A stretch of 64,000 nt of DNA, from assembly GCA_951406725.2 (NCBI GenBank), contig OX597819.1, forward strand, positions 88,226,001 through 88,290,000, written 5' to 3'. This document shows, in pieces, positions 7,305 to 59,391 of this stretch (within the stretch, counting starts at the first letter, position 1; each line of letters starts with the position of its first letter). The notes beneath the pieces are model-generated. The model had not been told where the DNA came from. It saw only the letters and a list, made by a program, of their open reading frames with translations, and did not search any database. This DNA comes from Octopus vulgaris (lineage: Eukaryota). The position numbers and the translations under genes are program-made.

Positions 7305-8060
7305 ATGTGTGTGAGTGTGTAAGTGTGTGCGCGAATGCGTCTGTGTGCAGCTCATTTTTCACATTCTTCGCATTTTTCAGATTATACACGAATCGAGCAT
7401 TTTAGAAAGTAACATTCTTGAAATTTATTCGTTTGTAGAAACTAGCAGAGATTATGTTGTAAGACAAACTGCCTATAAGTTACTATCGCTGTTAGTATTT
7501 AGAATATTTGTTCAATTCCAGAATGTAAAGAAGATATTTCAAGAAAAACGACAAAACAAACAATAACCAAACCTCTCGGCCTACATCTATAACGGTTTCA
7601 AATTTTGGCACAGCCCCAGCAATTTCGGGACAAGGTGTAACTAACTCGATTACATTGATCCCAGTATTCAACTGGTACTTATTTTATCGACCCCGAAAGG
7701 ATGAATAGTAAAGTCAACCTCGGTGGAATATGTATTACATGTTAAAGAGGGAGCTTCTTTGTGGTCATTCGATCTTTTGGAAATAACAACCAAATTTGTT
7801 CCTCCGTATCCTTTATATTAAGTAAGTGGGGTATACATTGAACAGTATGTACTTTGGTATACAAACTGGCAGGATGGTGACAACTGACATGACTTCAGTC
7901 CATGTTTTACTCGAATAAGACTGACCTTGGGTTGAATAACAGAGAAAATTATAATTTATTCCTTTAGAATAGTGGTTTCTGGTTTAGTTACAAGGCATGC
8001 AATTTTGGGGAGAGGAAGAATAGTCGGTACCATCCACCCTACCAAAAGGTACCATCCAAA

Positions 8061-8291
8061 AGGCGGCGAGCTGGCAGAATCGTTAGCACGCCGGGCGAAA
8101 TGCGTAGCCGTATTTCATCTGGCGTTACGTTCTGAGTTCAAATTCCGCCGAGGTCACTTTGCCTTTCATCCTTTTGGGGTCGATAAATTAAGTACCAGTT
8201 ACGCACTGGGGTCGATATAATCGACTTAATCCGTCTGTCTGTCCTTGTTTGTCTCCTCTGTGTTTGGCCCCTTGTGGGTAGTAAAGAAATA
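8061..8291 (+). mobile_element. SINE family A copy
   Basis: AGGCGGCGAGCTGGCAGAATCGTTAGCACGCCGGGCGAAAT...GTAGTAAAGAAATA; flanked by opposite-strand SINE-A remnants. Confidence 0.9.
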
Positions 8292-8643
8292 GCTACCATA
8301 CACCCTACCACTTGACCTCTACCTTATTTTAACGACCTCAGAGAGATGAAAAGCAAAGTTGATATCGGTGGAATTTTAACTCAACGTAAAGAACCGGGAC
8401 AAATACTGCAAAGCATTTTTCCCGACGATCAGAGTATTTGGTATCGCTAGGGGAGTCTTGACGTTCTGGTTTTCTGGAATTCGTCTCAGTTTTCATGCAA
8501 CAGTTCCGGTGTTCCGAAAGAATGCTTCGAGAGGGTGATTTATCTTTTTCTTTTTAATTTTATAATTTGTAAATATCTTCCTGGTTGTCGTAATTATGTT
8601 CTTTGAAAGTACAACCGCGGTTTCAAATTCAATTTTTGTTAAA

Positions 8644-8993
8644 GTAGGAGTGGCTGTGTGGTAAGTAGCTTGCTTACCAACCACATGGTTCCGGGTTCAG
8701 TCCCACTGCGTGGCACCTTGGGCAAGTGTCTTTTACAATAGCCTCGGGCCGACCAAAGCCTTGTGAGTGGATTTGGTAGACGGAAACTGAAAAGAAGCCT
8801 GTCGTATATATGTATATATATGTGTGTGTGTGTGTGTGTTTGTGTGTCTGTGTTTGTCCTTCCCCCAACATCGCTTGACAACCGATGCTGGTGTGTTTAC
8901 GTCCCCGTAACTTAGCGGTTCGGCAAAAGAGACCGATAGAATAAGTACTAGGCTTACAAAGAATAAGTCCTGGGGTCGATTTGCTCGACCAAA
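8644..8993 (+). mobile_element. SINE family B copy
   Basis: GGAGTGGCTGTGTGGTAAG (A box), GGTTCAGTCCC (B box), ACCTTGGGCAAGT; high identity to the other B copies. Confidence 0.92.
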
Positions 8994-15404: not shown

Positions 15405-16060
15405 GCGCATGCGTCGGTCTATTTGCTGTGTTGATTTTTGACGAGTCGGACGGAGTTTTTTCTGCTGCTTGGCAGCGGTTTGTCAGTGAGTGTCCTCAGC
15501 GGAAGAGGAGCTCGTTAAGGCGGCAAATAGAATGGACGAGCATTTGGAAAGAGTAAAGAGTTTTGCTGAGGCTGTAGAGGTGAAGAAAAGGGAGGTGGAC
15601 CTAGCCGAACGGAAGGAGCTGAGTAAGATGACACAGAAGGTGGGTCGTCACGTAAAGTTATTACCCCCGAAAAGAAGACCATTGAGTACAAGGTGTACTC
15701 AGTGAAGAGTAGGAAGGTGGAGCGGATGGAGATGGAAAAAGGTAGAAAAAGCATTGAAGGGGCTTTCGAAGGAAGTGACGTACATAGCCAAAGGAAATGG
15801 ATATGGGACGGTGGTTGTCCAGTTTAGGACAGCAGAGGAGGCAAAAATGCTGGTGAGTGCAACTGTAAAATCGGTGGAAGTGGTACTTCTACCTACGTAC
15901 CTTGGAAGAAAGACTTCTAAGGTGAAGGTAGAAGGAATTTCACCCGATATAGAAGTGGCTTGGGTTGCGGCAGCCGTCCTCATTGGAAGCGAGGAAGAGG
16001 TGACTGTCCTCCAAGCCACGGAAACGGAGGACGGAGGATGGAGAGGAAAAACACTGGACT
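15405..16060 (+). pseudogene. 5' region / ORF1-like fragment of a non-LTR retrotransposon, frameshifted, embedded in a SINE-B
   Basis: Purine-rich coding-like sequence with ORFs 15490-15705 and 15754-16060 (YIAKGNGYGTVVVQFRTAEEAK...LLPTYLGRKTSKVKVEGISPDI), which reads like an RRM-type LINE ORF1. SINE-B head at 15366-15403; SINE-B 3' half resumes after about 16060. Confidence 0.6.
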
Positions 16061-16062
16061 TG

Positions 16063-16093
<31 letters not shown>

Positions 16094-16760
16094 CCTTGTG
16101 TCTGTGTTCGTCTCTTAGTACCACTTGACAACCGGTGTTGTGTGTTCACGTCTCCCTAATTTAGCGGTTCGGCAAACAGAGGATAAGTACTGGGGTAGAT
16201 TAATTCGACAAAAAATTTTTCAAGGTACTGCTCCAGTATGGCCTCAATCATAAAAAAAGAAGATTCCCTTATTTGTGTGTTATGTTAATGCTAACTCCTA
16301 GCATAATGCAAGAGTCAGTATGCGCAGAAGGATTAATTGACTATTAAATCAATCCTGTTGTTTCTTTGGTATTTATGTTAGCAAACCTCCCGGAGGGCTG
16401 AAAGATAAAATCGATTCCAGCAGAATTTGAACTGAGGAAAACTTAACGAAATACCACATGACATTTTTGTTCGCTGCATGAACGATTCCACGAATCAACT
16501 GGCCTTTGCGAGAAATGTTTAAATGTTGATTTTTGAAACCTAAGTACAAGGACATACATCTATAGGCAGGTGGGAACAGTTAATTAAGTCTACCCAGTTC
16601 TTCCCTGCTGCTTTTTGGCATCCGAGAAAAATGAACAGTCGACCTCCACGGGATCTGAACTCAGAACATTTTTGTTCATCAGTCTAACGATTCTCCCAAC
16701 ATACTTCCATTTGTATGTAATGTTTAAAATATTGATTTCAGAACATTTTTTTTCAGTATT

Positions 16761-20190: not shown

Positions 20191-20380
20191 CTCTTGTTTC
20201 AGTCATTTGACTGTGGCCATGCTGGAGCACCGCATTTAGTCGAGCAAATCGACCCCAGGACTTATTCTTTATAAGCCTAGTACTTATTCTATCGGTCTCT
20301 TTTGCCTAACCGCTAAATAACGGGGACGTAAACACACCAGTATCGGTTGTCAAGCGATGTTGGGGAGGGGGAAAACACAG

Positions 20381-20417
<37 letters not shown>

Positions 20418-20583
20418 CATACATATATACGGCGGGCTTCTTTCAGTTTCCGTCTACCAAATCCACTCACAAGGCTTTGGTTGGCCCGAGGCTATAGTAG
20501 AAGACACTTGCCCAAGGTGCCACGCAGTGGGACTGAACCCGGAACCATGTGGTTCGTAAGCAAGCTACATACCACACAGCCAC
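20191..20583 (-). mobile_element. SINE family B copy
   Basis: Near-consensus reverse-complement copy. Confidence 0.92.
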
Positions 20584-20889
20584 ATGTTTTAAAAAAAGAA
20601 GAATTTGAATTCTCGTTAGTTGATGGTTGAGAAGGAAATATATATAAGGAGACATTTTCTCACGCAACCACACAGATTTTCCCCCTCCGCTCCCACATAC
20701 AAAATAAAGCTTTAATGGAAGCATTAAGGAAAGTACTAAGGTACAGTATGAGAACTTGAGAGACAAGAATCTATTGTTACAACGATGAAATGAGAAGTGA
20801 ATTCAAACGCTGATCGTAGGAGGATTATGTACATAGTCATCGTGTCCAGAAATAGAAACGATGAAATCATTATAATATTCTGATATTAA

Positions 20890-21655
20890 GGTGGTAAGCT
20901 TGGCAGAAACGTTAACACACTGGGCGAAATGCTTAGCGGTATTTCGTCTGCCGTTACATTCTGAGTTCAAATTCCGCCGAGGTCGACTTTGCCTTTTATC
21001 CTTTCGGGGTCGATAAATTAAGTACCAGTTACGAACTGGAGTCGATATAATCGACTTAATCCGTGTGTCTGTCCTTGTTTGTCCTCTCTGTGTTTAGCTC
21101 CTTGTGGGTAGTAAAGAAATAGAAATAGGTATTTCGTCTGCCGTTACGTTCTGAGTTCAAATTCTACAGAGGTCGACTTTGCCTTTCATCCTTTCGGGGT
21201 CGATTATGTAAGTACCAGTTACGCACTGGGGTCGATATATTCGACTTAATCCGTTTGTCCTCTCTGTGTCTAGCCCCTTGTGGATAGAAAAGAAATAGAA
21301 ATAGGTATTTCGTCTGCCGTTACAATCTGAGTTCAAATTCTACAGAGGTCGACTTTGCCTTTCATCCTTTCGGGGTCGATTAAGTAAGTACCAGTTACGC
21401 ACTGGGGTCGATATATTCGACTTAATCCGTTTGTCTGTCCTTGTTTGTCCTCTCTGTGTTTAGCCCCTTATGGGTAGTAAAGAAATAGGTATTTCGTCTG
21501 CCGTTACGTTCTGAGTTCAAATTCCGCTGAGGTCGACTTTCCCTTTCATCTTTTCGGGGTCGATGAATTAAGTACCAGTTGCGTACTGGGGTCGATCTAA
21601 TCGACTCCCCCCTCCCCCAAAATTTTGGGCCTTGTACCTAGAGTAGAAAAGAATC
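20890..21655 (+). mobile_element. Head-to-tail tandem array of SINE-A: one headed unit plus three head-truncated units
   Basis: GGTATTTCGTCTGCCGTTAC restarts at 20938, 21128, 21304 and 21488. Confidence 0.92.
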
Positions 21656-25110: not shown

Positions 25111-25422
25111 TTATGGGGACGTACTCCTGTTTTTGTCTGAGTCTTGGGTCCTTCGCGTTCTTGGATAAAATGCGAATGCCAAGTCGACCCAGTGTGCTTC
25201 CATGTTGGTCTTTGGCATGTTGCTAGAATATGAAGACTGTTTTTTGTCGTCATATTGTTTCAAATGTGCATTTAGTCTCTCTACAATGCTTCTAGATGTC
25301 TCACCAATGTATGTCCTATTCTTGTCTTTACAAGCACTCTCTATACGCCTTATGTTGCAGACTACATTTCTAGTTCTACAGTTAATGACAGCGTTAATCT
25401 TACATACCAAATGCACGTACAT
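25111..25422 (-). pseudogene. GIY-YIG endonuclease fragment of a Penelope-like element
   Basis: CRTRNVVCNI...C...TYIGETSRSIVERLNAH matches the PLE GIY-YIG pattern NVVY..C....YIGET.R.L..R..EH; frameshifted downstream. Confidence 0.88.
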
Positions 25423-26141
25423 AGGTCACACAAATCCATACACATAGACATACTCAAACATGCACACACAAGGAGACAGAGATACACACACAAATACACA
25501 CACACACACATACATACACATATACAACCACACAAATATGAACACACAAACACATGAATATGCAGAATACATACAAACGTACACACACGCATACATATAT
25601 AAATGCATACACACACACTCATACATACATACATACACACACACACATACATACATACATACATACATACATACATACATACACACACACACATACATAT
25701 GTGTATACACATGCACAATGACGTACACACATGCGCACAAACAAACAAACAATAATAACAGAGCTCCGATAACAGAGTCGACGACTATTGAGAGAGGTTG
25801 CCAGAGGCAAAGAAAATTTTAGAAAAAATAAACAACTGAGTGGAAATCGAACCAGTGAGTGTGTTAATTAATAAGGGTTTAAAAAGAATGACTCTCCCTT
25901 GACACAATAAAATATACATCAACACACGAATTCACATAAAGAATCTTGCAAAACGAAAACGAAATACTATATATATATATAAAGGGATGAATTATATGGT
26001 TATTGACGATATGTCTATTTTCGGCATATTTGGCATTAGAATTTCTTTTCTTTTGCCCTAGTTTATAAGTTGTTTATAAATTAAACCATTAAAGGTATTT
26101 TTTAATATGCCATTGATAGAATTTTTTCGAAAACTTTTATC

Positions 26142-37848: not shown

Positions 37849-40039
37849 TTTGATTGTTATTCTATTTTATCGACACACACACACACACGCACGCACATAG
37901 ACACACACCCACACGTGCACACACTCACGTGCTCGCACGCGCACGCGCACACACATGTGCACGCACTCACAGACGAATACATGTATATCAAATACCATAC
38001 AACATAAATACCTGATTTATCAAAATTATCTTCGCCTGAAGAGGATGTGTTGTAATTACGAAATGGTAATTATGTCCAAGAGAAATTATCTCATGAATCA
38101 AAAGTTCTCCAAAACTGACATGCCATTAAGGAAAAGGACAAGCTTACTGTCTGGGGATAAAAGGACAGTTGTAGACGCTTATTTCTGGTTGAATAGGCTT
38201 CGTCGGCACAACAGTAGTCCCACTTTATCTCTTGTTGCCAAGGGACTTAGACTTATACAAAAATGGGTAGAAAACATTAAGGTTTTGTTAATTTGCATAA
38301 TTTAAGCAAATATATGCAAAGAGAAATAACTCAAGTTGGCCAGTACAAGTTGAACTTGTACAACATAGATAAATAAAAGTACTTCAAATAATACACAACG
38401 TAAATTCTGGATTCATTAAAATTATCTCCGTCTGAAGAAGATGCATCATAATTACTAAATGCCAATTAAGACCAACTAAATAAGACATTATTGTTCATTG
38501 TGTTCTTTCCTAAGTTATAAAGAAAGATGAAAACTCATAAATCGAAATACGAAAAGAAATTAAAAAGTGCTAATTAGATAATTGTTAAACGTTTGTAAGA
38601 GAGCTCGAAATAAATGAATGGTGACATGTATGGAACATTTAACAGCATTAAATCATTTACAAGAGAAATCTAAAGTTATAAAATAGATAATTGTGAAAGT
38701 ATTTCGATTTGTTTTTGTTGTATGTAAATTGTCACGAGAGCAAAGGCTAGACTACTGGGTGGAAGTGATAAAGGATCAAAATATATAGAGGAAATGGGGA
38801 AGACAATGATCTTAGTGGTAAAATTTATCCCTACTTAAACGAGTTTTCTATTAGAACAAGCTACACTACGGTAGTTACCACGAGAGAAACTCTCATATTA
38901 GCTTTTAGGTGTAACATGCACTCTTGTATATATTGCTATGATACCTGTGAACCTTGAGCAAAAATGATGTTCAAAATGCGTCCTAAATCAACATTTTTGA
39001 TAAAATATATCAAAAGTGGAATTTTAAAGATTTAAAAATACGGTAGCTTTTAGCTCATATACCAATATGACCGTTACTGACAAATCATTTTATTCTAGAT
39101 ATGAAAGACAATGGCTGTCAGCAATGCTCGTGATGAAATTTAAAGCCAATAGCAGCTTGCAAAACGCTGCTAAGACTCTCACCTTCAAAGTCAAGTAGTC
39201 TAGAAAAACCTAGAGTAAGATTCCTGGCTGTTATTTCAGAATTTTCTTCAATGAGATGGCTAAGCAAAGTCGTGGTGTCTCTCACCCTCAGCTATTGGAT
39301 GGCAATTGACTCTACTGTGTTCATTCGTCCTTTGAAAGGCTATTTTTTTCATCCTGAAGTGTGTCCAACGAAAACCAACCTCCTTACCCCGTAGGCTTGG
39401 TAAGGTTGCCGATTGAATCGGCGACGGTTCGACCATGTGACACGCCGTACCAATAGCACGAAAAGCGACCTGACAATATATAGCTATGTTTACATTACGC
39501 TCATTATATGCATAAGATATAAAGGAAGAAACTGTTTGAAAATATTACGATAATATTTTAGTAAGAAAGTGTTTATCGTTCAAGAACTTAAGTTTTGGGT
39601 TCCATTTTATCTGATCTCAACATATGAAAAGCCACTTGCTTAGAAAATTAGCTTAAAATTTTGAAAATGAGATTAGCTTATATTTCATTTAAGTAAATTG
39701 ATCGGTGGTTAGCTGCAAAGCTTGCACAAAATACATTCGTATTATCACACTTCTAAGCAAACCTACTGAATATGAAACAGAGGGCATCAACTTCATAATT
39801 TTATTTTCTGTAAGAAACACAGTTCTCTTTTGTGTTTTGTTATTTTACATTTTGTACGATGTTTTGAGATAAAGACAGTGTTTAATATATTTCCAGGCTT
39901 TATATATCTACTTTTAGAATTCGGTATTTACCAGTACAAGAAAACTATCCTTTGCCGATGTGGTCAGAATATTACTGAAACATGCCCGAAGTCTGTAGTT
40001 GTCTCCCCTACTTGCCCGGGAAATATAAAAATAATATTA

Positions 40040-44982: not shown

Positions 44983-45024
<42 letters not shown>

Positions 45025-45027
<3 letters not shown>

Positions 45028-46010
45028 TTATTAGAGACAAAACCACTATTTTGCAAAACAAACAAGGAAAGACTTAATCAATACATAAAATTTTAATAAA
45101 TAGTCAAAAAAACCGCCACTACAATTGTTTCTTGTCTTGATCGACAATCTTCAGGTGGACTTCCAATCTAAAATATCAATATTTTAAAATATAAAAATAA
45201 TAATTTAAAATAATTAAAGTATGAATGAAAAAATATAAATATATAATCCATATATAACCTATATATAATCCATATATAATAAATATATAAACAATATATA
45301 AACTAAAATAAACCTATCAACAATTAAATATAAAATATAAAATATAAAATATAAAATATAAAATATAAAATATAAAATATAAAACAAAACAAAAAAATAA
45401 TAATAATATAATAATAAACTATATATACACCCATACTCATATACCTAATTATATATAACCATATCTAACTACATACACTAAAACACACACCTATATATAT
45501 ATATCCCTATACACATAAAAACGTCTAGGCAACTATAAATAAATAAAATAGCTAAATACTTCAACACAATACTTATTCATACTCCCACACACACACACAT
45601 ACAACCCACATTCACGCTCTAGAAAACAGACATCACTTAAAATTATGAACGGAGAAATAGAATAAATGGAATTAAAAATTATATTCACTTGGTAAAACGA
45701 ACACTACTTAAAAATTATGAATGAAACAATGCAATAAAACAACAGACATCGCAAATAGACACAAATTACTACGAATTCCTTAACAAACCTACCATGATAA
45801 ACCAAAACTCATAAAAACATATAATGATAAAATCTCCCTTTACTAAACTCTGTAACATACCTATATAGCAATCCCCCCAACCTAAACATTCACACACAAA
45901 TACACACACGTAAACCACACACCCACGACATATACAAATACCCACACCACTTACACATACCTATACATACATATAAACCTCAACATATACTCCAAAAACC
46001 CACTCAACCC

Positions 46011-46018
<8 letters not shown>
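45025..46018 (-). mobile_element. Probable Penelope-like non-coding (pLTR-type) remnant within (TA)n
   Basis: Strongly strand-biased (A/C-rich on +) 1-kb block between (TA)n tracts, carrying an HHR followed on the minus strand by ATTAAA. Confidence 0.55.
45116..45158 (-). ncRNA. Type I minimal hammerhead ribozyme
   Basis: Minus strand CCAC-CTGAAGA-TTGTC(GATCAA)GACAA-GAAA-C(AATT)G-TA-GTGG: 4-bp stem I, both core boxes intact, perfect 5-bp stem II, palindromic stem III, GUA site. Confidence 0.85.
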
Positions 46019-46086
<68 letters not shown>

Positions 46087-46088
<2 letters not shown>

Positions 46089-46601
46089 GTCATACGATAT
46101 AGTGTATATTTAAACACATAAGGAATACACTTATAGGAATTCAACACGCTAGAAAGAACAGCTAGGTTCTATAACCATAAAAATTAGGGACAAAATTCGA
46201 CAGGAACGAATTGAAAAATGAAAAACATTTTACCATCTAGTTTCCTGGACCAATTGGCTTCTGGTTTTAGTTTCGCGAGTCAAGGAACTCGCTAGGTGTA
46301 ATCTTCTTCAGCAGGACCACATAGGGTTAAACGTATACACACGGGACGATCAAAACTACTTGCCCGGTGTTTATACGTCCTAACTTTTTCAAAATTTACT
46401 GCGCAGCCGGAGACCTTCGCCGGCAATAAAAAAAAACCGCCAACTTTTAAAACCGTAAATTATCCAAAAAAACTTACAATATTTAATCATATCAAAGGGA
46501 AATGGAAATTAATTAAAATTTACATTTCCAGGGGTCTAACGCGTAAAATTTAGTCAAAAAGACTATATATTAGTTATACGATAAAGTGTATATTTAAACA
46601 C
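46087..46601 (-). mobile_element. Non-coding 484-bp unit bounded by 31-bp direct repeats, within (TA)n, containing an HHR
   Basis: TAGTCATACGATATAGTGTATATTTAAACAC (46087-46117) vs TAGTTATACGATAAAGTGTATATTTAAACAC (46571-46601); long (TA)n on both sides; no ORF in the track. Confidence 0.72.
46243..46316 (-). ncRNA. Type I hammerhead ribozyme variant with a 12-nt insertion between the core and stem II
   Basis: Minus strand TCCTG-CTGAAGA-[AGATTACACCTA]-GCGAGT(TCCTTG)ACTCGC-GAAA-CTAA(13 nt)TTGG-TC-CAGGA: 5-bp stem I, 6-bp stem II, 4-bp stem III plus A-U, GUC site. Confidence 0.7.
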
Positions 46602-47285
<684 letters not shown>

Positions 47286-53151: not shown

Positions 53152-53167
53152 TACTAATAATAATAAT

Positions 53168-53760
53168 TCTTACTACTAAAGGCACAAAGCCTGGAATTTT
53201 CGGAGAAGAGACTAGCCGATGACATCGAACCCCAGTATTTCACTGGTACTTAATTTATCGAACCCAAAAGAATGAAAGGCAAAGTTGACCTCGGCTGTAT
53301 TTAAACTCAGATCGTAAAGGCGGACGAAATACCGCTGAGCATTTCGCCCGGCGTGCTAACGATTCTTTTCTACTCTAGGCACAAGGCCCGAATTTTTTGG
53401 AAAGTGGGGTGGGCAGTCGATTAGCTCGACCCCAGTACGCAACTGGTACTTAATTTATCGACCTCGAAAGGATGAATGGCAAAGTCGACCTCGACGGAAT
53501 TTGAACTCAGAACATAAAGACAGACGAAATACCGCTAAGCATTTCGCCCAGCGTGCTAACGATTCTGCTAGCTCGCAGCCTGGCTTTCAAATTTTGGCAC
53601 AAGGCCAGCAATTCTGGTGAGGGCTATATTAATTTCAACGACCACAGTACTCAACTGGTACTTATTTTATCGACCCAGAAAGTATGAAAGGCAAAGTCGA
53701 TGTTGGCGGAATTTGAACTCAGAACATAAAAATACTACTAAGTATTTTGTCCGACGCTCA
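53168..53760 (-). mobile_element. Three tandem SINE-A copies
   Basis: Central domain repeated three times on the minus strand. Confidence 0.87.
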
Positions 53761-53969
53761 AATAAATTCTATCAAAATAATATCAGAAATAATGCCTCAA
53801 GTATAACAAAAATACTTCTTTGTTGAAACCATTTTAGCTGAGTCGCAATATATATGACAAAATATTTGTGAATGGAACTCAAAAGTAGACACACGCAGTA
53901 TGTATGTATGTATGTATGTATGTATGTATGTATGTATGTATGTATGTATGTATGTGTGTATGTATGTGT

Positions 53970-54195
53970 GTTTGTGCGTCTGTGTTTGTTCCCTCCACCA
54001 TCACTTGACAACCGATGCTGGTGTGGTTACGTCCCCGTAACTTAGCGGTTCGGCAACTTAGCGGTTCAAAAATGACTGATAGAATAAGTGCTATGCTTAC
54101 AAAGAATAAGTCCTGGGGCCGATTTGCTCGACTAAAGGCGGTGCTCCAGCATGGCCGCAGTTAAATGACTGAAACAAGTAAAAGAGTAAAAGAGT
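53970..54195 (+). mobile_element. SINE-B 3' half
   Basis: CTTGACAACCGATGCTGGTG...GACTGAAACAAGTAAAAGAG. Confidence 0.88.
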
Positions 54196-54599
54196 ATGTA
54201 TGTATGTATCGTATATGTATAATGCATATATTTATGTATGCATGTATATATCATGTATGTATGTACGTACGTGTATGCACGTATATATGAGTGTATATAT
54301 CTATATATATAAATATATTTATGTCGATGTGTAGACACACACACACGCGCGCACAAGCACTCATGACGGCCTCCCAAGTTCTATACATAAGGTTTTGGTC
54401 AGCTCGACGCCAAAGGAGAACCACCGTTAGGTGTGTACCGCACGGTGGGACCATACCTGGGACCACATAGCTGCCAGTCAAATTTATTAATTATATATAA
54501 GTACTCATACAACCTTTATATTCATACTCACACGTATACAATTATTGTTTCCCTAAATATACTTGTACACGTCTATTTTAAGATATACATTTTAATTTG

Positions 54600-58672: not shown

Positions 58673-58855
58673 AAGAACGAGAGAAATATTAAAACAAGAA
58701 AGATATAGAAAAGCCTGGTGTCAAATAAGTCAACGCCGATTCAGCAATGTCAAGTAGGCGCAGGTCGCAGACGAATGACTGAAAGAAAGAAAAAAAGATA
58801 TCATCAAGTATAATAGAGACTTAAGTGAATGCGAAAAGTGGTCTTCATTGATATA

Positions 58856-59391
58856 CAGGGTGTCCCAAAAAAATGTATACACTTGCTGCAACAGTCTGTC
58901 ATGCCAAGCATTAGAGAGGACTTTGAACAGGAAGAGTTTTATTTCCAGCAAGATGGGGCACCTCCACACTACCATCGCGATGTTAGATCCTTTCTTGATG
59001 GGATCTTGCCAAACAGGTGGATTGGACGGAGAGGTTTTGTCGAATACCCTCCACGTTCACCAGACCTCACACCACTAGACTTCTTTTTATGGGGATACCT
59101 AAAGGACAAAGTCTACGCACAGAAACCTGCAACAGTCGTTCAATTGAGGGCAACTATTGAACATGAATGTACGAATATCCCAAGGGAATTGTTCCATGAT
59201 GTGTGCCATTCCATCGCTTCGCGTTGTCAGCAGTGTCTGGAGCAGAACGGACATCAGTTTGAGAACATGCGATAACAAGACAATAGAATGATATTTGTAA
59301 ATTCTTTTACATGTTGAAAATTATTCGAATTATAATAAACCCCAAATTTACAATTATTTAAGGTGTGTATACATTTTTTTGGGACACCCTG
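58856..59391 (+). mobile_element. Internally deleted Tc1/mariner transposon of the DD41D (rosa/Visitor-type) group
   Basis: Perfect 27-bp TIRs CAGGGTGTCCCAAAAAAATGTATACAC (58856-58882 and 59365-59391), TA on both sides; transposase C-terminus inside. Confidence 0.95.
58883..59275 (+). pseudogene. Transposase catalytic-domain C-terminal fragment (open frame, first catalytic D missing)
   Basis: FQQDGAPPHY...RWIGRRG...YPPRSPDLTPLDFFLWGYLKDKVY; 41 residues counted between the QDG Asp and the final PLD Asp. Confidence 0.93.

Follow-up and report, generated by a model that had tools for sequence, protein, structure and literature searches.

A 484-bp non-coding unit embedded in (TA)n of the Octopus vulgaris genome is probably a worn and circularly permuted representative of a repeat with many copies, the relatives of which carry a Penelope-type hammerhead. 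It was likely put into (TA)n in trans by enzymes, a reverse transcriptase and an endonuclease, that an autonomous Penelope-like element (PLE) supplied. The copy lies in a window of 64,000 nucleotides (contig OX597819.1), the whole stretch of DNA that was analysed and to which all positions refer. Self-cleavage, a circular RNA and a PLE partner are properties that we infer for the unit. In line with the original prediction, relatives in public sequencing runs support a multi-copy, non-coding, (TA)n-inserted and hammerhead-bearing unit of the retrozyme/PLE type. The unusual core of the window copy is, as compared with these relatives, an artefact of mutations that they do not share.

The unit and its flanks

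The predicted arrangement of 31-bp direct repeats with two mismatches (46087-46117 and 46571-46601, spaced by 484 bp) around an ORF-less unit in (TA)n was verified for repeats, frames and flanks alike. Gapped alignment lengthens the repeats to about 38-39 bp (46079-46117 against 46564-46601, 89.7%). The features of the copy are as follows.

46018 to 46078, no strand: (TA)n tract on the 3' side of the copy in the RNA sense, likely the insertion target
46079 to 46117, minus strand: 3' terminal redundancy with an ungapped core at 46087-46117, about 38 bp with one indel, ending within a TA-like stretch of the element
46118 to 46601, minus strand: 484-bp monomer without a coding frame, with a GC content of 35% and in circular permutation with respect to the commonest family end
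46479 to 46480, minus strand: commonest family end, where relatives stop and go on into (TA)n and depth climbs sharply on the 46480 side
46498 to 46529, minus strand: AU-rich hairpin adjoining the commonest family end (predicted fold; local folding z of -3.63 for 46487-46566)
46564 to 46601, minus strand: 5' copy of the terminal redundancy, with the 5' truncation point at 46601
46602 to 46794, no strand: (TA)n tract bordering the copy on its 5' side, assigned from the sequence

Read circularly, the unit holds no coding frame, the longest ATG-started one spanning 33 amino acids and the longest stop-free one 83, and the latter returned no Pfam match. With no frame above 83 amino acids, the unit lacks the ORF with reverse transcriptase and GIY-YIG domains of an autonomous PLE. 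No further copy was found elsewhere in the 64-kb window. Folded as a circle, the monomer scores better than 99 of 100 shuffles (z of -2.69), a signal in weak support of the reading given above, as it may stem from local hairpins. The proposed structure of a monomer plus terminal redundancy is retained as regards the redundancy (31 bp, about 38 bp when gapped), the repeat itself more plausibly reflecting the overlap within a permuted copy than a terminal repeat of fixed position.

The hammerhead as first drawn

On the minus strand, the window copy presents CUGAAGA (46311-46305), GAAA (46274-46271) and GUC (46250-46248), plus a 5-bp stem I, and these elements of the proposed three-helix hammerhead stand. 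The claim that the sequence folds into this shape does not, as the minimum free energy structure is a different one, the folding z-score of the region is -0.88, the drawn stem III has a pair probability of 0.01, and no Rfam hammerhead match was obtained for the copy at E<=10. Across the whole window, the 150 of 268 Rfam rows listed include miRNA-like matches to microsatellites. A relaxed descriptor, composed after the finding had been read and allowing an insert of 0-15 nt, matches this locus only within the 64-kb window, and was matched in 1 of 50 block-shuffled windows and 2 of 2000 shuffled units. The hammerhead likeness of the locus exceeds chance.

The window copy could in principle be a hammerhead active as a monomer, in which a 12-nt insert follows A9, the GAAA box lies at 46274-46271 and stem III has 5 bp, its register having moved by two mutations. 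Every pair of that drawing can form without mismatch (-11.5 kcal/mol), and both boxes and the GUC are intact in that register. Nevertheless, we consider this barely plausible: the minimum free energy structure lies 7 kcal/mol lower, stem III is hardly populated, the G at 46274 is missing from 97.5-100% of depth in relatives (see below), and the natural core inserts described in PMC3088659 comprise 1-2 nt and mostly lower activity.

Relatives in public sequencing runs

Of the 24 runs listed under four organism labels, 20 contain a portion of the unit, and four were analysed at a likeness threshold of 80%: X1 (organism A), X2 and X6 (organism B) and X7 (organism C). Contigs matching the unit number 1675 of 35.8 million in X1, 1355 of 40.6 million in X2, 610 of 14.2 million in X7 and 82 of 0.73 million in X6, the largest class of likeness to the unit being 90-95%. 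On this sequence evidence the 484-bp unit is an old, many-copy family. The records listed comprise 40 of 107 variant rows, 15 of 25 joints, 24 of 448 loose ends and 32 of 3793 pieces, and depth values are contig depths, not copy numbers. Pattern scans for relatives gave 0 matches in metagenome and 0 in viral data; a candidate from a further metagenome scan, L001, was rejected as a 24-nt chance match beyond which similarity ends.

The family register of the hammerhead

Five hammerhead positions carry another letter in relatives, four of them at 96-100% of depth, and the motif holds seven variant rows among the 40 of 107 listed (46258, 46264, 46274, 46293, 46299, 46317 and 46321). Reading these letters into the motif yields a different register, henceforth the family register, with the following parts.

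46237 to 46247, minus strand: 3' strand of stem I and distal extension; stem I at 46247-46243, extendable to 46242, distal part at 46240-46237 (pair probabilities 0.58-0.65 and about 0.5)
46248 to 46258, minus strand: stem III and predicted cleavage site; 10-nt palindrome at 46258-46249 in relatives, 8 of 10 self-complementary in the window copy; C17 at 46248
46258 to 46261, minus strand: family GAAA box (G12-A15.1), GAAG in the window copy and likely inactivating; 46258 differs in 96-100% of depth in all four runs
46262 to 46304, minus strand: 43-nt stem II region, also containing the formerly proposed insert and the private GAAA (46274-46271)
46305 to 46311, minus strand: CUGAAGA core box, intact, with no variant among the 40 of 107 rows listed
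46312 to 46324, minus strand: 5' strand of stem I, including its internal loop and its distal extension

The order of the family motif is accordingly stem I, CUGAAGA, an extra A, a 4-bp helix with G10.1-C11.1 first, a 5x6 internal loop, a 7-bp helix, an extra A, GAAA, palindromic stem III and GUC. Proximally, stem II is flanked by an unpaired A on each side and pairs 46303-46300 with 46263-46266 before the internal loop; distally, 46294-46288 pair with 46273-46279 around an 8-nt loop.

At 46258, relatives have A in 99.3, 96.1, 99.2 and 100% of depth (X1, X2, X7 and X6, also in the following), so that GAAA is formed at 46261-46258, A15.1 is restored and 46258-46249 becomes a perfect 10-nt palindrome. 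This family GAAA sits 13 nt downstream of the one originally assigned. At 46264, U is found in 99.6, 96.4, 98.6 and 100% of depth, completing the 4-bp helix with 46303-46300, which is itself part of the supposed insert. At 46274, taken as G12 in the original prediction, 97.5, 98.3, 100 and 100% of depth has another letter, U on the minus strand, which pairs with 46293. Family letters at 46321 (98-100% of depth) and 46317 (0-79%) add pairs to the stem I extension, the variant at 46293 (0-52%) changes A-U to G-U, and that at 46299 sits in the internal loop. The pairs of the window copy that fail under the family register are exactly 46302:46264, 46293:46274, 46317:46242 and 46321:46240, and in all four the relatives carry the Watson-Crick letter (96-100, 97.5-100, 0-79 and 98-100% of depth).

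The letters also occur together. Record 23 of X6, covering 46247-46365, has five letters that differ, placed by the X6 columns at 46258, 46264, 46274, 46299 and 46321; by their co-occurrence, a single real sequence unites core, stem II, GAAA, palindrome and GUC. This record comes from a run guessed to be RNA and holds an intact family hammerhead at a depth of 234, the depth of the other record over the middle being 4.7; it terminates in an inverted piece of the element. Its start at 46247, one base from the predicted cut, was considered as a sign of cleavage and discarded, as record 28 of X7 starts there too and contigs cannot show RNA ends.

Several earlier features dissolve in the family register. 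The GAAA box at 46274 is no family feature, the position differing in all four runs. The 12-nt insertion of a core-expanded variant now forms the 5' arm of stem II, which is long and interrupted. Where a real stem III had been seen, relatives have the 10-nt palindrome instead, and the proposed contrast with minimal PLE hammerheads falls away, the family having an ordinary small palindromic stem III. CUGANGA, GAAA, an NUH site and A15.1-U16.1, as expected of a type I hammerhead, are all present in relatives and incomplete in the window copy (GAAG), and the open-ended helix I, G10.1-C11.1, the extra base after A9 and the palindromic helix III are found in the family register. Changes at 15.1/16.1 are described to reduce hammerhead activity at least tenfold (PMC3088659); with A15.1 lost, the window copy's own ribozyme is likely dead.

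The register was drawn once the variants were known, and the folding probabilities are those of the decayed window copy, where the proximal part of stem II has a pair probability of 0.00. The helix changes observed are one-sided restorations and one A-U/G-U exchange, with no two-sided (compensatory) change among the 40 of 107 variant rows listed. Aggregated, the family register appears well supported by the relatives, though unproven by covariation.

Ends, circular closure and inverted junctions

Loose ends cluster at 46479, with 22, 13, 7 and 8 contigs in X1, X2, X7 and X6 among the ends listed. Of the end-to-start joints, three of five listed extend past the direct repeat both ways, with shorter sides of 45, 56 and 94 letters; a 46601-to-46139 joint (side 36) and joints with sides of 31 and 19 fall within the redundancy and were not counted. 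Requiring at least 31 letters across, 46479 is bridged by four and 46270 by three of the 32 pieces listed, with other pieces tiling the middle (X1-8, X2-13 and X6-22 fall below this at 46479). Together, the joints over the direct-repeat junction and the pieces over 46479, 46270 and the middle indicate that the family sequence closes into a 484-bp circle, as assembled from overlapping pieces and the window copy. No single contig spanning the whole unit and no record with two hammerheads was seen in the four runs among the 32 of 3793 pieces listed. On these coordinates, the window copy is a permutation that begins 123 bp ahead of the commonest end and, on the second pass, fails to reach it by about 85-92 bp. 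Both 3' ends, 46479 and that near 46079-46087, lie in AU-rich stretches resembling the target, and microhomology priming, or later loss of the final 85-92 bp into the TA tract, may have played a part.

Three of the 15 joints listed switch strand, and together with the inverted end of record 23 they match the inverted, 5'-truncated copies of PLEs (PMC8557442). The unit hence displays a partial tandem, an end extension of 30-40 bp, inverted truncated copies and a microsatellite target, as known for PLE insertions, and at the same time is non-coding, multi-copy, low in GC and equipped with a type I hammerhead, as retrozymes are.

These ends also bear on whether the repeat is another kind of element, a SINE or a non-autonomous DNA element, with an incidental hammerhead likeness. 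We judge this very improbable, even considering the missing Rfam hammerhead match and that no PLE protein has been linked to the unit: descriptor matches are rare in shuffles, relatives are closer to the hammerhead consensus than the window copy, the permuted ends, inverted junctions and (TA)n ends suit PLEs, and neither a terminal inverted repeat nor a tRNA-like head is apparent in the unit.

Uneven depth and the possible role of an autonomous element

Depth is 3-35x higher at 46246-46263 than at 46282-46299. It is high from 46480 across the repeat junction to about 46270, and in X1 it falls from 64884 to 4004 between 46264 and 46274. From this imbalance, most related DNA may belong to a second, possibly coding, element sharing approximately 330 bp with the unit; alternatively, there may be a subfamily too diverged in the middle to match at 80%.

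The unit could then be a minor, internally deleted by-product, or the pseudo-LTR, of an abundant autonomous PLE, with the hammerhead as a passenger and no RNA circle. The excess over the middle at 46480-46570 and 46087-46270 with its sharp boundary, the report that animal retrozymes are PLE pseudo-LTR derivatives (bioRxiv 10.64898/2026.07.22.740005) and the match of the 31-38-bp end repeat to the PLE tail length (PMC8557442) agree with such an origin, the depth imbalance being the chief argument for it. On the other hand, the middle of the unit is also multi-copy, with 36, 15 and 21 contigs differing at 46321 in X1, X2 and X7 and pieces carrying 4 to 25 differences. Moreover, the 24 of 448 loose ends and 15 of 25 joints listed show no common exit into long foreign sequence save a low-agreement one at 46273, where the loose ends partly resemble the same hairpin, and neither the octopus Naiad ends nor the Hydra one among the consensus sequences of PMC8557442 match the unit by exact words or by eye. 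We regard the by-product origin as unlikely.

An autonomous PLE partner was not found, seven unit-derived words giving 0 matches in the PMC8557442 consensus set (exact words, where line breaks may hide matches). For the only PLE tested, the protein is reported to cut AT-rich DNA and to start reverse transcription inside its RNA at two tail-defining sites, internal priming and a 30-40-bp tail being demonstrated (PMC11167929). In that work, hammerhead cleavage required the protein and was dispensable for insertion in vitro, which we count against our preferred explanation, as we do the report that eight of nine frog retrozyme dimers remained uncleaved, with one of nine active (bioRxiv 10.64898/2026.07.22.740005).

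Returning to the decayed copy of a PLE-mobilised repeat, the following course can be proposed. Tandem copies would be transcribed from the minus strand, and the palindromic stem III may join two hammerheads, the cut after GUC releasing a 484-nt monomer that is possibly ligated to a circle. A PLE protein would nick AT-rich DNA and begin reverse transcription internally on multimeric or circular RNA, mostly at 46479 and, for the window copy, near 46079-46087. Copying would span one unit and about 38 nt and halt at 46601, and this overrun would generate the direct repeat. Later decay would have removed A15.1 and three or four helix pairs, with a chance GAAA gained upstream.

Other elements in the window

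Approximately 1.1 kb from the first hammerhead and on the same strand, the TA-bounded block 45024-46017 contains an intact, compact PLE-type hammerhead (45116-45158, minus strand). It has a 4-bp stem I, CUGAAGA at 45154, a 4-bp stem II that one extra base flanks at either side, GAAA at 45131, a perfect 8-nt palindromic stem III and a GUA site at 45120. Its descriptor was matched in 3 of 200 shuffled windows, no Rfam hammerhead match was obtained for it, and it has no similarity to the 484-bp unit; it likely represents the 3' terminus of another PLE family.

A degenerate GIY-YIG endonuclease fragment (25111-25425, minus strand, Pfam E 4.4e-05) is probably a PLE relic and, with the compact hammerhead, places remnants of PLE type in the vicinity of the unit, which we count in favour of the preferred explanation. 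Its 12 relatives are short, three of the nine scanned match GIY-YIG, and a C..C..H..H pattern is present among them (motif as in PMC8557442). The search found no long relatives of the fragment and no link between its relatives and the 484-bp unit. Two 112-bp stretches on the plus strand (37968-38079 and 38364-38475), 75% alike, spaced by 396 bp and each with CTGAAGA but no full hammerhead, are perhaps an old tandem of another such element. A 148-aa frame at 58829-59275 (plus strand) without a Pfam match at E<=0.1 presumably resembles the C-terminal part of a Tc1/mariner transposase. The 140-aa frame at 15706-16128 (plus strand) has a weak RRM_3 match (E 0.056) and is possibly a retroelement ORF1 remnant. 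Short interspersed repeat families of 70-95% identity with microsatellite tails occupy much of the window (e.g. 8060-8295, 8622-8993, 20193-21606 and 53166-54196).

Novelty and significance

No description of the 484-bp family, or of any cephalopod retrozyme, was found in the literature searched; Repbase and Dfam were outside the search, so the repeat may be catalogued. A recent annotation of octopus repeats includes active PLE families, with ribozymes unmentioned in the text available (PMC13282606), and the text of bioRxiv 10.64898/2026.07.22.740005 names vertebrates, insects and coral, its supplements possibly holding more families. The retrozyme class, its link to PLEs and this type of ribozyme have already been published, and the mild peculiarity is the 43-nt stem II region that was missed by Rfam and short-spacer descriptors. 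If the preferred explanation is true, a retrozyme-type family is added to a lineage for which none was found described, together with a system for testing if multimers or circles serve as templates when PLE machinery copies non-coding RNAs with hammerheads; a single 484-bp unit whose copies end in different registers is the material needed for that question. The case also cautions that one decayed copy may mimic a new ribozyme variant.

A further-reaching idea, doubtful at present, is a cephalopod retrozyme with a 484-nt circular RNA that a PLE protein primes at several AU-rich sites onto (TA)n, giving permuted copies. Its 43-nt interrupted stem II would escape detection by Rfam and by descriptors with short spacers, leaving a whole layer of animal hammerheads overlooked, perhaps with some of the 'half-core' cases spaced by 35-50 nt among them.

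Comparison with known systems

Animal non-LTR retrozymes (Cervera & de la Pena 2020, PMC7229834; Li, Clavereau & Pollet 2026, bioRxiv 10.64898/2026.07.22.740005) are described as non-coding repeats in tandem that bear type I hammerheads, with expression as circles reported in the former and derivation from PLE pseudo-LTRs, with monomers common, in the latter. Shared with the unit are the non-coding nature, low GC, the type I hammerhead, candidate head-to-tail junctions with dispersed monomers and the proposed PLE dependence, and there is a mollusc precedent in mussel (350-390 bp). At 484 bp, the unit exceeds the 170-400 nt of invertebrate retrozyme RNAs (PMC7229834), which we count against our preferred explanation, and falls within the 51-972 bp given in the bioRxiv work. 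It differs by the interrupted 43-nt stem II region and the (TA)n ends.

The PLE pseudo-LTR hammerheads of the small-palindromic-helix-III type (Cervera & de la Pena 2014, PMC4209133), which in metazoans are thought to be dimeric and weakly cleaving, share with the family the extra nucleotide after A9, G10.1-C11.1, the palindromic helix III, a helix I of 5-6 bp and many dispersed single copies. Unlike them, the unit has no attached ORF, and its helix II consists of 4 bp, an internal loop and 7 bp in place of a single 6-8-bp helix.

Among PLEs, Naiads and the Hydra clade, for which one octopus member is listed (Hydra-1_Obim; Craig et al. 2021, PMC8557442), share (TA)n targeting, a 30-40-bp tail and inverted truncated copies with the unit. 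By eye, the 3' ends of Naiad_Obim, Naiad_Ovul and Hydra-1_Obim in the supplement of that work show no likeness to the unit, and an exact-word search there, in which line breaks may hide matches, returned no words of the unit or of its neighbour at 45154. Naiads are without canonical hammerheads, unlike the unit family. The core search of the same study covered 7-17 nt between the boxes and reports eight half-core cases at 35-50 nt, compared with a spacer of 43 nt in the family. Hydra hammerheads have a near-palindromic stem III and an extra base flanking stem II on both sides, features which the family hammerhead shares.
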